Part shown: positions 77-25,080 of the stretch, piece after piece
Layout: each line of letters begins with the position of its first letter
Numbering within the stretch: the first letter of the stretch is position 1
Assembly: GCF_024223415.1 (NCBI RefSeq)
Contig: NZ_CP100500.1
Length of the DNA: 64,000 bases
Strand: one strand, 5' to 3'
Source of the DNA: Escherichia coli
Lineage (GTDB): Bacteria > Pseudomonadota > Gammaproteobacteria > Enterobacterales > Enterobacteriaceae
Made by a program: the position numbers and the translations under genes
The notes under the pieces: model-generated
Seen by the model: the letters and a program-made list of their open reading frames with translations, nothing else
The model's database searches: none
Told to the model about the DNA's origin: nothing

Positions 77-843
77 TGAGCAATTTATTAGGCCCCCGTG
101 ACGCCAACGGCATTCCGGTCCCGATGACGGTGGATGAATCCATCGCCAGCATGAAGGCGTCGTTACTGAAAAAAATCAAACGTTCTGCCTACGTTTACCG
201 CGTGGACTGCGGCGGCTGCAACGGCTGCGAAATCGAAATTTTCGCCACGCTTTCGCCGCTGTTTGATGCAGAACGCTTCGGCATTAAAGTCGTTCCTTCA
301 CCGCGTCATGCGGATATTTTACTGTTTACCGGCGCGGTCACCCGTGCAATGCGATCCCCTGCGCTGCGTGCGTGGCAGTCCGCGCCGGACCCGAAAATTT
401 GTATCTCCTACGGTGCCTGCGGTAACAGCGGCGGGATCTTCCACGATCTCTACTGCGTGTGGGGCGGTACGGATAAAATCGTCCCGGTGGATGTTTATAT
501 CCCTGGCTGCCCGCCAACGCCAGCCGCCACGCTGTACGGCTTTGCAATGGCGCTCGGCCTGCTGGAGCAGAAAATTCACGCCCGTGGGCCGGGTGAGCAG
601 GATGAACAACCGGCGGAGATCCTGCATGGCGATATGGTGCAGCCGCTGCGTGTGAAAGTGGATCGCGAAGCACGTCGACTGGCGGGTTATCGTTACGGTC
701 GTCAGATTGCCGATGATTACCTTACACAGTTAGGGCAGGGCGAAGAACAGGTTGCACGCTGGCTGGAAGCGGAAAACGATCCGCGTCTGAACGAGATTGT
801 CAGCCATCTGAATCATGTTGTTGAAGAGGCGCGTATCCGATGA
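76..843 (+). CDS. hycG: hydrogenase-3 small subunit HycG
   Basis: 255 aa ORF; NADH-quinone oxidoreductase 20 kDa-like Cys motifs ([12 protein letters not shown]); recognised as HycG. Confidence 0.95.
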
Positions 844-1250
844 GTGAAAAGGTGGTGTTCAGTCAACTGAGCCGTAAATTTATTGATGAGAACGATGCCA
901 CGCCCGCCGAGGCGCAGCAGGTGGTCTATTACAGCCTGGCGATTGGTCACCACCTTGGGGTTATCGATTGCCTGGAAGCAGCGCTCACCTGCCCGTGGGA
1001 TGAATATCTGGCATGGATTGCCACTCTGGAGGCGGGCAGCGAAGCCCGCCGCAAAATGGAAGGTGTGCCGAAGTATGGTGAAATCGTCATCGACATTAAC
1101 CATGTGCCGATGCTGGCCAACGCATTCGATAAAGCCCGGGCAGCGCAAACTTCGCAGCAGAAAGAATGGAGTACAATGCTGTTAAGTATGTTGCATGATA
1201 TTCATCAGGAAAACGCCATCTATTTTATGGTGAGGAGACTGCGTGACTGA
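840..1250 (+). CDS. hycH: formate hydrogenlyase maturation protein HycH
   Basis: 136 aa ORF overlapping hycG stop by 4 nt; recognised as HycH. Confidence 0.9.
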
Positions 1251-1713
1251 CGTTTTACTCTGTGTTGGCAATAGCATGATGGGCGATGATGGCGCAGGTC
1301 CGCTGCTGGCGGAAAAGTGCGCTGCCGCGCCGAAAGGTAACTGGGTGGTGATTGACGGCGGTAGTGCACCGGAAAACGACATCGTCGCCATCCGTGAACT
1401 GCGCCCTACGCGGTTACTGATTGTTGACGCTACTGATATGGGGCTAAACCCCGGCGAAATCCGCATCATCGACCCGGATGATATCGCCGAGATGTTTATG
1501 ATGACTACCCATAACATGCCGTTGAACTACCTTATCGATCAGTTGAAAGAAGATATTGGCGAAGTGATTTTCCTCGGCATCCAGCCGGATATCGTCGGCT
1601 TTTACTACCCGATGACCCAGCCGATTAAAGATGCGGTAGAAACCGTTTATCAACGACTGGAAGGCTGGGAAGGGAACGGCGGCTTCGCGCAGTTAGCGGT
1701 GGAAGAAGAGTAG
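1243..1713 (+). CDS. hycI: hydrogenase-3 maturation endopeptidase HycI
   Basis: 156 aa ORF, GTG start overlapping hycH stop; recognised as HycI. Confidence 0.93.
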   Translation: MTDVLLCVGNSMMGDDGAGPLLAEKCAAAPKGNWVVIDGGSAPENDIVAIRELRPTRLLIVDATDMGLNPGEIRIIDPDDIAEMFMMTTHNMPLNYLIDQLKEDIGEVIFLGIQPDIVGFYYPMTQPIKDAVETVYQRLEGWEGNGGFAQLAVEEE

Positions 1714-1784
1714 TTTTTCAATAAGGAATCAGGACAGGGATGTTCTTGATGGGGTGAACCAGCTCTGATGCCAAATGCTAAATT

Positions 1785-1864
1785 GCCCGATGCGCTGCGC
1801 TTATCGGGCCTACATGTCGCACGAACTATGTAGGCCGGATAAGGCGTTCACGCCGCATCCGGCA
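1785..1864. repeat. REP/BIME element (two inverted REP units)
   Basis: gcccgatgcgctgcgcttatcgggcctaca ... tgtaggccggataaggcgttcacgccgcatccggca; classic REP palindromes between convergent hycI and ascB. Confidence 0.85.
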
Positions 1865-1871
1865 CGGTTAC

Positions 1872-4762
<2,891 letters not shown>

Positions 4763-19940: not shown

Positions 19941-20434
19941 ATGACTGACAGTGAACTGATGCAGTTAAGCGAACAGGTTGGGCAGGCGCTGAAAGCCCGT
20001 GGCGCAACCGTAACAACTGCTGAGTCTTGTACCGGCGGTTGGGTAGCGAAAGTGATTACCGATATTGCCGGTAGCTCCGCCTGGTTTGAACGCGGATTTG
20101 TCACCTACAGTAACGAAGCCAAAGCGCAGATGATCGGCGTACGTGAAGAGACGCTGGCGCAGCATGGCGCGGTGAGCGAACCCGTCGTGGTGGAAATGGC
20201 GATAGGCGCACTGAAAGCGGCTCGTGCTGATTACGCCGTGTCTATTAGTGGTATCGCCGGGCCGGATGGCGGCAGTGAAGAGAAGCCTGTCGGCACCGTC
20301 TGGTTTGCTTTTGCCACTGCCCGCGGTGAAGGCATTACCCGGCGGGAATGCTTCAGCGGCGACCGTGATGCGGTGCGCCGTCAGGCTACTGCGTATGCAT
20401 TGCAGACCTTGTGGCAACAATTTCTACAAAACAC

Positions 20435-20438
<4 letters not shown>
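19941..20438 (+). CDS. pncC: NMN amidohydrolase PncC (CinA C-terminal domain family)
   Basis: ORF 19938..20438; second Met gives 165 aa MTDSELMQLSEQVG. Confidence 0.9.
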
Positions 20439-21579
<1,141 letters not shown>

Positions 21580-21610
21580 TCGTTCGTTATTGATGATAAT
21601 AGATAATGTG

Positions 21611-21670
21611 TGCACGGACGGTCCCCTCGCCCCTTTGGGGAGAGGGTTAGGGTGAGGGGAACAGGCCAGC
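21611..21670. repeat. GC-rich imperfect palindromic intergenic repeat (boxC-like)
   Basis: tgcacggacggtcccctcgcccctttggggagagggttagggtgaggggaacaggccagc in the recA-recX spacer; assignment to a named repeat family is from memory. Confidence 0.5.
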
Positions 21671-21773
21671 ACTGGCGTGAAAAATTACTCTCACCTCGAT
21701 CCTCTAACGAATTGGGCCTGCGGGAACATTCTGCACACTCATTGACTATTAAATCTGTTTATCAGCAAAACCT

Positions 21774-21803
21774 GGGTCGCATCTGCGGCCCTTTTGCTTT
21801 TTT
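21774..21803 (+). terminator. intrinsic terminator between recA and recX
   Basis: gggtcgc-atct-gcggccc stem (one G-U pair) followed by TTTTgCTTTTTT. Confidence 0.75.
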
Positions 21804-21821
21804 AAGTTGTAAGGATATGCC

Positions 21822-22322
21822 ATGACAGAATCAACGTCCCGTCTCCCGGCATATGCTCGCCTGTTGGATCGTGCGGTACGCATTCTGGCGGTGCGCGATC
21901 ACAGTGAGCAAGAACTGCGACGTAAACTCGCGGCACCGATTATGGGCAAAAATGGCCCAGAAGAGATTGATGCTACGGCAGAAGATTACGAGCGCGTTAT
22001 TGCCTGGTGCCATGAACATGGCTATCTCGATGACAGCCGATTTGTTGCGCGCTTTATCGCCAGCCGTAGCCGCAAAGGTTATGGACCTGCGCGTATTCGC
22101 CAGGAACTGAATCAGAAAGGTATTTCCCGCGAAGCGACAGAAAAAGCGATGCGTGAATGTGACATCGACTGGTGCGCACTGGCGCGCGATCAGGCAACGC
22201 GAAAATATGGTGAACCTTTGCCAACTGTCTTTTCAGAAAAAGTTAAGATCCAGCGTTTTCTGCTCTATCGTGGCTATCTGATGGAAGATATCCAGGATAT
22301 TTGGCGAAATTTTGCCGACTGA
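21822..22322 (+). CDS. recX: RecA inhibitor RecX
   Basis: 166 aa; recognised as RecX. Confidence 0.92.
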
Positions 22323-22449
22323 ACGCATACGGTATTTTACTTCCCAGTCAAGAAAACTTATCTTATTCCCACTTTTCAGTTACCAGCCCGGCGGTTAAGA
22401 CACGCTGGAGCTGGTGGCGATATTTCGTTAGCTTGATTTCAGGATAATT

Positions 22450-25080
22450 ATGAGCAAGAGCACCGCTGAGATCCGTCAGGCGTTTCTCGACTTTTTCCAT
22501 AGTAAGGGACATCAGGTAGTTGCCAGCAGCTCCCTGGTACCCCATAACGACCCAACTTTGTTGTTTACCAACGCCGGGATGAACCAGTTCAAGGATGTGT
22601 TCCTTGGGCTCGACAAGCGTAATTATTCCCGCGCTACCACTTCCCAACGCTGCGTGCGTGCGGGTGGTAAACACAACGACTTGGAAAACGTCGGTTACAC
22701 CGCGCGTCACCATACCTTCTTCGAAATGCTGGGCAACTTCAGCTTCGGCGACTATTTCAAACACGATGCCATTCAGTTTGCATGGGAACTGCTGACCAGC
22801 GAAAAATGGTTTGCCCTGCCGAAAGAGCGTCTGTGGGTTACCGTCTATGAAAGCGACGACGAAGCCTACGAAATCTGGGAAAAAGAAGTAGGGATCCCGC
22901 GCGAACGTATTATTCGCATCGGCGATAACAAAGGTGCGCCATACGCATCTGACAACTTCTGGCAGATGGGTGACACTGGTCCGTGCGGCCCGTGCACCGA
23001 AATCTTCTACGATCACGGCGACCACATTTGGGGTGGCCCTCCGGGAAGTCCGGAAGAAGACGGCGACCGCTACATTGAGATCTGGAACATCGTCTTCATG
23101 CAGTTCAACCGCCAGGCCGATGGCACGATGGAACCGCTGCCGAAACCGTCTGTAGATACCGGTATGGGTCTGGAGCGTATTGCTGCGGTGCTGCAACACG
23201 TTAACTCTAACTATGACATCGACCTGTTCCGCACGTTGATCCAGGCGGTAGCGAAAGTCACTGGCGCAACCGATCTGAGCAATAAATCGCTGCGCGTAAT
23301 CGCTGACCACATTCGTTCTTGTGCGTTCCTGATCGCGGATGGCGTAATGCCGTCCAATGAAAACCGTGGTTATGTACTGCGTCGTATCATTCGTCGCGCA
23401 GTGCGTCACGGTAATATGCTCGGCGCGAAAGAAACCTTCTTCTACAAACTGGTTGGTCCGCTGATCGACGTTATGGGCTCTGCGGGTGAAGACCTGAAAC
23501 GCCAGCAGGCGCAGGTTGAGCAGGTGCTGAAGACTGAAGAAGAGCAGTTTGCTCGTACTCTGGAGCGCGGTCTGGCGTTGCTGGATGAAGAGCTGGCAAA
23601 ACTTTCTGGTGATACGCTGGATGGTGAAACTGCTTTCCGTCTGTACGACACCTATGGCTTCCCGGTTGACCTGACGGCTGATGTTTGTCGTGAGCGCAAC
23701 ATCAAAGTTGACGAAGCTGGTTTTGAAGCTGCAATGGAAGAGCAGCGTCGTCGCGCGCGCGAAGCCAGCGGCTTTGGTGCCGATTACAACGCAATGATCC
23801 GTGTTGACAGTGCATCTGAATTTAAAGGCTATGACCATCTGGAACTGAACGGCAAAGTGACCGCGCTGTTTGTTGATGGTAAAGCGGTTGATGCCATCAA
23901 TGCAGGCCAGGAAGCTGTGGTCGTGCTGGATCAAACGCCATTCTATGCGGAATCCGGCGGTCAGGTTGGTGATAAAGGCGAACTGAAAGGCGCTAACTTC
24001 TCCTTTGCGGTGGAAGATACGCAGAAATACGGCCAGGCGATTGGTCACATCGGTAAACTTGCTGCGGGTTCTCTGAAAGTGGGCGACGCGGTGCAGGCTG
24101 ATGTTGATGAAGCTCGTCGCGCCCGTATTCGTCTGAATCACTCCGCAACGCACCTGATGCACGCTGCGCTGCGCCAGGTTCTGGGTACTCATGTAACGCA
24201 GAAAGGTTCACTGGTTAACGACAAGGTGCTGCGCTTCGACTTCTCACACAACGAAGCGATGAAACCAGAAGAGATTCGTGCGGTCGAAGACTTGGTGAAC
24301 GCACAGATTCGTCGCAATTTGCCGATCGAAACCAACATCATGGATCTCGAAGCGGCGAAAGCGAAAGGTGCGATGGCGCTGTTCGGCGAGAAGTATGATG
24401 AGCGCGTACGCGTGCTGAGCATGGGCGATTTCTCCACCGAGCTGTGTGGCGGTACTCACGCCAGCCGCACTGGTGATATTGGTCTGTTCCGCATCATCTC
24501 TGAATCGGGTACTGCTGCAGGCGTTCGTCGTATCGAAGCGGTAACCGGAGAAGGTGCTATCGCCACCGTTCATGCAGACAGCGATCGCTTAAGCGAAGTC
24601 GCACATCTGCTGAAAGGCGATAGCAATAATCTGGCTGATAAAGTGCGCTCAGTACTGGAACGTACGCGTCAGTTAGAAAAAGAACTACAACAGCTTAAAG
24701 AACAAGCTGCCGCACAGGAGAGCGCAAATCTTTCCAGTAAGGCAATTGATGTTAATGGTGTTAAGCTGTTGGTTAGCGAGCTTAGCGGTGTTGAGCCGAA
24801 AATGTTGCGTACCATGGTTGACGATTTAAAAAATCAGCTGGGGTCGACAATTATCGTGCTGGCAACGGTAGCCGAAGGTAAGGTTTCTCTGATTGCAGGC
24901 GTATCTAAGGACGTCACAGATCGTGTGAAAGCAGGGGAACTGATTGGTATGGTCGCTCAGCAGGTGGGCGGCAAGGGTGGTGGACGTCCTGACATGGCGC
25001 AAGCCGGTGGTACGGATGCTGCGGCCTTACCTGCAGCGTTAGCCAGTGTGAAAGGCTGGGTCAGCGCGAAATTGCAATAA
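22450..25080 (+). CDS. alaS: alanine--tRNA ligase AlaS
   Basis: 876 aa; class II aaRS motifs, editing domain HxxxH / CGGTH, C-terminal DHHA1. Confidence 0.97.

Follow-up and report, generated by a model that had tools for sequence, protein, structure and literature searches.

The recA-recX spacer of Escherichia coli: a conserved terminator and an optional BoxC-containing palindrome

BoxC repeats were reportedly described by Bergler in 1992 and by Bachellier in the 1990s, and the PIT elements by Hoyne and Maher in 2000/2002. Holder et al. (2015; PMC4666352) treat the TMECO of their own study, the BoxC repeat of the 1990s and Hoyne and Maher's PIT (potential intrastrand triplex) elements as one family. 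Their census found 23 copies in Escherichia coli MG1655; over 56 E. coli strains it counted 823, spread over 63 loci, and TMECO loci were more variable locally than control loci. From a structural perspective, oligonucleotides of the class named type A mm form a stable purine-motif intrastrand triplex in vitro, as seen by CD and NMR, whereas in vivo DMS footprinting did not support a stable triplex, the duplex form being dominant (PMC4666352). As for transcription, the same paper, summarising the work of Hoyne and Maher, describes PIT/BoxC elements as lacking promoter and terminator activity and as having no effect on RNA polymerase.

The second described system is the passage of transcription from recA into recX. 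In E. coli, recX is co-transcribed with recA (PMC3062782), and in K-12, which carries a short form of the intervening spacer, read-through of the recA terminator into recX is about 10%, a figure of Pages, Koffel-Schwartz and Fuchs (2003), as cited in PMC3542578, that comes from K-12 only. Other elements with which the locus described here can be compared are the BIME/REP and ERIC (IRU) repeats, likewise imperfect palindromes that differ from strain to strain and sit between a stop codon and a terminator, and the MITEs, small non-coding palindromes with short terminal inverted repeats and with filled and empty alleles.

The window analysed here is a stretch of 64 kb from E. coli in which recA and recX are separated by a spacer of 242 bp (Table 1), 100% identical to many complete genomes; a first-pass annotation had given 243 bp, its other features of the spacer being as described. 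Upstream of recA lies a LexA/SOS box, the function of which we take to be established knowledge for E. coli recA. In our reading, which we hold to be likely, the spacer combines two unrelated things, a conserved leaky terminator and an optional, near-neutral BoxC passenger. Both components are already known, since the BoxC/TMECO repeat is catalogued and the leaky recA terminator feeding recX is published, so that the locus adds little new biology; what it offers is a comparison of two stable alleles and a concrete case of repeat turnover.

Table 1. Features of the recA-recX region, with positions counted from the first nucleotide of the 64-kb window.
Feature	Position	Strand	Description
recA promoter-like site TTGATA-16-TATAAT	20435..20462	+	LexA/SOS box CTGTATGAGCATACAG at 20441-20456, overlapping the promoter
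recA CDS	20518..21579	+	MAIDENKQ...ETNEDF, then stop; matches the recA annotated in RefSeq
recA-recX spacer, long allele	21580..21821	+	242 bp; shared unchanged by many E. coli genomes; RefSeq annotates no gene here
Composite palindromic BoxC element, 190 nt	21584..21773	.	ends approximate; from K-12 alignment and homology to the gcvP-ygfF, yijF-gldA, sstT-alx and adk-hemH copies
Left terminal inverted repeat TTGATGATAA	21590..21599	.	partner 21759-21768, TTATCAGCAA; 90% complementary
Left outer arm of the palindrome	21597..21626	.	pairs with 21722-21751; 30 nt, 70% complementary; also in the MFE fold
71-codon GTG-start ORF	21610-21825	+	traverses repeat and terminator; from the mechanical ORF list
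BoxC/PIT/TMECO unit, type A with one mismatch	21624..21659	+	CCCTCGCCC-CTTTG-GGGAGAGGG-TTA-GGGTGAGGG-G; fits the published consensus pattern
G-run block GGGGAGAGGGTTAGGGTGAGGGG	21637..21659	+	sense strand of the recA 3' UTR
Decayed inverted second BoxC unit	21688..21724	-	reads ctctcacctcgatcctctaacgaattgggcctgcggg; copies keeping both units read CCCTCACCCCGACCCTCTCCCTGAAAGGGCGAGGGG
Right terminal inverted repeat TTATCAGCAA	21759..21768	.	GCAAAA next to it (21765-21770) is able to pair with the U-run of the terminator
recA intrinsic terminator	21774..21803	+	7-bp stem with one U·G pair, 4-nt loop, tail UUUUGCUUUUUU; identical in K-12
recX Shine-Dalgarno-like AAGGA	21811..21815	+	6 nt 5' of the ATG; read directly from the sequence
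recX CDS	21822..22322	+	166 aa

The GC-rich 36-mer singled out by the first-pass annotation (ccctcgcccctttggggagagggttagggtgagggg) lies at 21624-21659. The TMECO consensus, CCCTCNCCC N3-6 GGGNGAGGG N3 GGGNGAGGG [G/T/C/-], is matched at 21624-21658 (plus G), and the 36-mer is letter for letter that of the "type A mm" MG1655 elements 7, 11 and 15 (Table 1 of PMC4666352). Judged by sequence, the motif is a member of the known, catalogued and dispersed BoxC/PIT/TMECO family. It shares with that family the intergenic position, the multiple copies and the presence or absence from strain to strain. Of the paired arrangement at five MG1655 sites, a type A unit (TTA loop) with an inverted type B unit, it shows the type A unit together with a decayed inverted homologue; it also differs in its place in the recA-recX spacer, where K-12 has no copy, and neither recA nor recX is named in the supplements of Holder et al. 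(2015). The suspicion that the repeat belongs to a dispersed intergenic family is thus borne out by its identity to catalogued BoxC/TMECO copies and by its multi-copy occurrence across genomes, whereas the term "imperfect palindrome" suits the 36-mer less well: the GC-rich motif is real, but it consists of one C-block and two G-blocks, the triplex-type pattern of BoxC/TMECO. The G-run block is furthermore the only canonical G-quadruplex motif (four runs of at least three G, with loops of 7 nt or less) on both strands of the whole 64-kb window.

Family membership had to come from other genomes, because a 30-mer from the motif, with up to 3 mismatches allowed, found no further copy in the 64-kb window, as it found none in 100 shuffles of it. 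The search beyond the locus that the first-pass annotation had called for returned multiple places per genome, and the motif is not unique: in about 5,425 complete E. coli genomes, those that match the spacer at all do so at a median of 6-7 places, with up to 14, and the long-allele genomes among the matches listed have mostly 8-14. All the BoxC copies examined are intergenic (gcvP-ygfF, yijF-gldA, sstT-alx, hrpB-mrcB, fepB-entC, lldD-trmL, tauD-hemB, adk-hemH, frlR-yhfS, yjdP-phnP and fabI-ycjD).

The 36-nt motif is only the left unit of an imperfect palindrome of 190 nt, at 21584-21773, a composite that was overlooked in the first-pass annotation. Alignment with the gcvP-ygfF, yijF-gldA, sstT-alx, fepB-entC, adk-hemH and other copies gives the order of the family unit as an outer arm, a type A unit, a loop of about 27 nt, an inverted type B unit and a second outer arm. 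In the window, the inverted unit is homologous by alignment to the second BoxC unit, having diverged so far that it falls outside the consensus and fails the strict TMECO pattern. Moreover, unlike the BoxC pair as described, the repeated unit here extends for about 40-50 nt beyond that pair on each side, up to terminal inverted repeats. To our knowledge, this extended BoxC unit with its terminal inverted repeats has not been singled out in the BoxC literature, and a literature search for a name of a larger BoxC composite (with RSA, IRU or BIME) returned nothing relevant.

The whole insert is predicted to fold, as RNA, into one long hairpin (z = -5.6 for the spacer) that leaves the terminator free, the 36-mer being paired with its decayed partner at 21688-21724 and not with itself. 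For the element between 21594 and 21772, the calculated fold energy is -71.9 kcal/mol in the sense RNA and -55.4 kcal/mol in the antisense, a difference of 16.5 kcal/mol, while in the gcvP-ygfF copy, which has kept both units, it is symmetric (-85.4 and -86.8 kcal/mol). Several right-arm changes replace C by T on the non-template strand of recA and preserve G·U pairs in the sense RNA, so the asymmetry could stem from selection for the structure of the recA transcript or, alternatively, from a C-to-T bias or transcription-associated deamination of the non-template strand. A stem of about 155 nt and -72 kcal/mol, predicted in the sense orientation and more stable there than in the antisense, would suit an element of mRNA stability or processing, acting as a REP-like 3'-UTR hairpin that shields recA mRNA from 3' exonucleases in read-through transcripts, or as a cleavage site for RNase III or RNase E through which recA and recX would decay independently, and sister lineages do carry REP/BIME at the same position. 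We nevertheless regard this role as quite improbable: terminated recA transcripts already carry a protective terminator hairpin, we know of no experimental evidence for BoxC in RNA decay, and the asymmetry amounts to a handful of C-to-T changes that deamination of the non-template strand would explain equally well.

In an alignment with K-12, the 190 nt at 21584-21773 stand in place of 16 nt (CTTGTTTGATACACAA) of the 68-bp spacer, a net difference of +174 bp, and the hairpin, its tail, the distance to recX and the recX ribosome-binding site are base for base as in K-12. This insertion polymorphism had been missed by the first-pass annotation. The long allele is carried by 1634 of 5425 complete E. 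coli genomes (about 30%); in the remaining genomes, as sampled, the locus is 174-175 bp shorter (366-367 vs 541 bp) and the spacer measures about 67-68 bp, the locus being in E. coli essentially biallelic, with both alleles stable. Across about 1630 genomes the long allele is at least 99% identical, and it is also found, with the same decayed right arm, in Escherichia sp. E1V33, in which the insert has 6 differences and the flanks differ from those of the window at 36 of 1001 nt (about 3.6%). A near-invariant allele shared with a lineage of diverged flanks must be considered old and retained. More generally, both alleles sit on flanks that are 3-5% diverged, so both are old or have been moved by recombination. 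Two genomes with the long allele, O145 str. RM9872 (H14) and strain 95-3192 (H71), have only 2 matching places per chromosome; this retention of the recA-recX copy in BoxC-poor lineages hints at an import of the recA region by recombination.

For a comparison outside E. coli, 79 recX loci were taken, one genome per species, of which 77 yielded a spacer for the comparison. The modal spacer in these enterobacterial loci is 67-70 bp, most loci outside E. coli being of similar length, and the repeat-bearing insert is absent from every non-Escherichia locus examined. The outgroup genera have short spacers in which the 20-mer before the hairpin resembles that of K-12, and the K-12 20-mer itself is found unchanged in E. 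whittamii and a divergent "E. coli" lineage, as well as towards the left of the E. albertii spacer. The short or K-12-like form of the outgroups and of four Escherichia lineages speaks for the short form as the ancestral one and for a single origin of the long form. The pair of filled and empty alleles, the small size and the terminal inverted repeats TTGATGATAA and TTATCAGCAA recall a MITE, but the insert has no clean target-site duplication, and the short allele carries 16 replaced nucleotides in lieu of a simple empty site. In the alignment with K-12, the search for a target-site duplication flanking the insert yielded only a poor similarity between TTAATCGT and TTAAATCT. A simple MITE insertion with target-site duplication was for these reasons rejected as not demonstrable.

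The other component of the spacer is the terminator. Its stem is formed by GGGTCGC (21774-21780) and GCGGCCC (21785-21791), with one T·G pair and the loop ATCT (21781-21784), and is followed by the tail TTTTGCTTTTTT (21792-21803) and by 18 nt (21804-21821) before the recX ATG at 21822. With six of the seven stem pairs G-C, a tail of TTTTGCTTTT and a position 195 nt past the recA stop codon, the structure has the features of an intrinsic terminator. The hairpin with a G-U pair and an interrupted U-run, 18 bp before recX, is therefore located where the first-pass annotation had placed it, although the gap between repeat and hairpin, given there as about 100 bp, measures 114 nt. By itself the structure would not stand above chance, since a simple terminator scan found 2 where 2.5 were expected; its significance lies instead in its conservation in 77 related loci. 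In fact, a hairpin of the form AAGGGCYGC-loop-GCRGCCC followed by TTTT(T)GC(A/T)TTT is present in 77 of 77 enterobacterial recA-recX spacers, and in an alignment of 47 sequences the core GGG/CCC and GC/GC pairs are invariant, while one stem pair covaries (UA in 20, UG in 16, CG in 11) and a second varies between CG (39) and UG (7). A G·U pair in the stem is common among these loci and the interruption of the U-run is shared nearly everywhere, so the imperfections are not peculiar to this window; being so widely shared, they would fit a conserved and deliberately leaky terminator. The attenuated read-through from recA into recX proposed by the first-pass annotation is right, and had already been published for K-12 (about 10%, PMC3542578; co-transcription, PMC3062782).

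Taken together with the published measurements, these features point to the following picture. The ancestral, slightly imperfect Rho-independent terminator, conserved across the Enterobacteriaceae, would halt most of the LexA-controlled recA transcripts, while a minority, about 10% in K-12, would continue into recX; a leaky terminator downstream of a LexA-controlled gene would in this way make RecX, which inhibits RecA filaments, SOS-inducible and hold it in a constant low ratio to RecA. In about 30% of E. coli, an optional non-coding mosaic palindrome, built round a BoxC unit and a decayed inverted unit, lies in the presumably tolerant stretch from the recA stop codon to the foot of the terminator hairpin. 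It would add a long and stable stem-loop to the 3' untranslated region of recA, while no change is seen in the hairpin and U-run of the terminator, in the ribosome-binding site of recX or in the spacing of these elements. The insert is most likely a selectively near-neutral passenger, a neutrality that we infer.

The first-pass annotation had instead made the repeat part of the attenuation layout, as an addition of further RNA structure, and in its strongest form this proposal would make the repeat a working part of attenuation, with its RNA structure tuning the passage past the terminator into recX. Just 5' of the terminator the sense strand is indeed predicted to form a very stable RNA hairpin, and the long allele is highly conserved. 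Moreover, an A-tract at the right end of the insert might reach the U-run: compared with the K-12 leaky terminator, with which the window shares hairpin, U-run, recX distance and recX ribosome-binding site, the long allele has 174 extra untranslated nucleotides upstream and, before the hairpin, GCAAAACCU where the short allele has ACACAA, and in the prediction the GCAAAA at the insert's right end pairs with the first 7 residues of the tail (probability at least 0.83), while in the short allele, in the K-12 context, the predicted tail pairing is only partial. On modelling grounds, pairing of the tail by GCAAAACCU could alter the efficiency of termination. However, the insert makes no difference to the predicted formation of the terminator stem, the probability of which is at least 0.91 in both contexts. 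The examination of a regulated attenuator or riboswitch gave no predicted competing anti-terminator pairing and no known leader family in Rfam, in which a scan of 20000-23000 with E up to 10 returned chance-level matches only, the best being Antizyme_FSE (E = 1.8), on the BoxC hairpin. Furthermore, PIT elements are summarised in PMC4666352 as having neither terminator activity nor an effect on RNA polymerase. About 70% of E. coli, among them the K-12 strain in which read-through was measured, do not carry the insert, nor does any non-Escherichia locus examined, and the terminator is conserved in all of these, so that the repeat is not necessarily part of attenuation, and we consider it unlikely that it is a working part of it. 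The U-run pairing, the near-invariance of the long allele and the asymmetry of the sense-strand fold leave room for a modest effect of the insert on termination or mRNA stability, which is conceivable.

A product encoded by the spacer itself, be it the 71-codon GTG ORF or a small RNA, is extremely improbable. The ORF does figure in a mechanical ORF list, but it traverses the repeat and is missing in 70% of strains, RefSeq has no annotation here, Rfam has no match, and the promoter scan found no sigma-70-like or promoter-like site in the spacer; a recX promoter within the insert was rejected on this last ground. As a gene, the ORF was rejected because it consists of repeat sequence, is strain-specific and is unannotated in RefSeq, and it is almost certainly spurious. 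For annotation purposes, the spacer is better labelled as a BoxC-containing repeat insertion followed by the recA terminator than as a composite attenuator, and the ORF should be disregarded. On the reading of a conserved terminator with an optional passenger, the coexistence in E. coli of two old and stable alleles of the recA 3' UTR, with spacers of 242 bp and 67-68 bp, constitutes a natural experiment, and the allele pair is usable for testing the effects of BoxC on termination, mRNA stability and RecX dosage.

The spot just 5' of the recA terminator is a hotspot at which BoxC, REP/BIME and ERIC replace one another across lineages, which makes recA-recX a concrete example of repeat turnover at a single terminator-proximal site repeatedly taken by different families. 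In Escherichia sp. MOD1-EC7003 (L008, locus about 479-1500), the spacer extends over 1022 bp. The BoxC element survives there as a decayed left half, behind which stand five tandem units, each about 190 bp long and composed of a REP pair (BIME) and a duplicate of the terminator hairpin, GGGGCGCATTTGCGGCCC. In this genome recA matches the window at every one of its last 500 nt, whereas 27 of the 501 positions of recX differ, so that the spacer looks like a recombination junction. The 238-bp spacer of Escherichia albertii (L010) contains the K-12-type 20-mer, a degenerate duplicate of the hairpin (GGGACGTATCTGCGAC), a BIME, a right-end motif CTTTGTCAGCAAAACCT that recalls the long allele of E. 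coli at its right junction, and finally the true terminator; its BIME is thus a different repeat at the same spot. The 195-bp spacer of Silvania confinis (L022) carries CAGTAAGTGACTGGGGTGAGCG, which from the ERIC2 primer sequence we take to be an ERIC/IRU element, and the two 149-bp spacers of L064 and L069 share the two outer flanking stretches of L022 without the ERIC core and, on sequence grounds, may be ERIC remnants. In all three, the insertion lies upstream of the conserved hairpin.

Such turnover raises a further possibility, in which the relevant entity is the DNA and not the transcript: a transient triplex, H-DNA or G-quadruplex of BoxC, formed during replication or transcription, might turn the spacer into a rearrangement and recombination hotspot. 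In vitro, oligonucleotides of the exact 36-mer class form triplexes, and TMECO loci are more variable than controls (PMC4666352), the BoxC unit holds the sole G4 motif of the 64 kb, the spacer is much rearranged among Escherichia lineages (BoxC, BIME, BIME arrays with duplicated hairpins), and in one lineage a recA 3' end identical to that of the window is joined to a recX diverged by 5.4%, as expected of a recombination junction at the spacer. Nonetheless, in vivo footprinting did not back a stable triplex, the duplex being dominant (PMC4666352), and within E. coli the locus is cleanly biallelic with each allele stable. Lineages devoid of BoxC, such as Silvania, with ERIC, and Kluyvera, also have insertions here, so the hotspot may belong to the site rather than to BoxC. 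An active role of BoxC DNA is, all things considered, rather unlikely.

A comparison with the BIMEs at the same position shows both a difference and a likeness. The core of the window spacer is BoxC, with no REP/PU or ERIC core, and no REP (palindromic unit) such as GCCGGATGCGGCGTGAACGCCTTATCCGGCCTAC was found in 21580-21821 when compared with the REP-bearing L008 and L010. The end motif TGAGA-N4-TGAYAA, on the other hand, is common to BoxC composites and BIMEs, and is shared by the BoxC composite ends with the BIMEs at recA-recX in E. albertii and Escherichia sp. MOD1-EC7003. At yijF-gldA (L002, 1470-1670, vs L093), the site is taken by a BoxC composite in 641 genomes and by a REP/BIME in K-12 and most others. 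The two alternative alleles have the same junctions (GAGTTTCAGA on the left, TCAAACTCCCGG... on the right) and lie directly 5' of a terminator-like hairpin, CTCCCGGACAATCCGGGAG-TTT. This locus was rejected as a filled/empty pair for the definition of the element ends, since its other allele is a BIME at the same junctions. At adk-hemH in K-12 (L089, 478-520), a BoxC copy with an internal deletion has its central loop fused to the right-end motif CTTATCAGCAATCTCA, which adjoins a terminator-like hairpin downstream of adk (GGCCGGATATTCATTCGGCC-TTTT).

The shared ends and the alternative alleles hint at a common frame or mechanism, which may already be implicit in the older BIME literature. A bolder proposal is that the BoxC composite is a BIME-type mosaic with REP-BIME end motifs, that such cassettes swap 5' of terminators at recA-recX, yijF-gldA and adk-hemH through a shared mechanism of targeting, mobilisation or gene conversion, and that the long allele retunes the RecX:RecA ratio. 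We give it only a small chance, but if it were true, one mechanism would be aimed at the feet of terminators and the RecX:RecA ratio would be measurably retuned in about 30% of E. coli.

As regards mobile replicons, Holder et al. (2015; PMC4666352) reported no association of TMECO with plasmids. In the searches made here, the matching places on plasmids amount to 9-12 in all, and the 154.7-kb plasmid NZ_CP074792.1 carries, at 1627-1664, a perfect 38-nt match to the BoxC unit.
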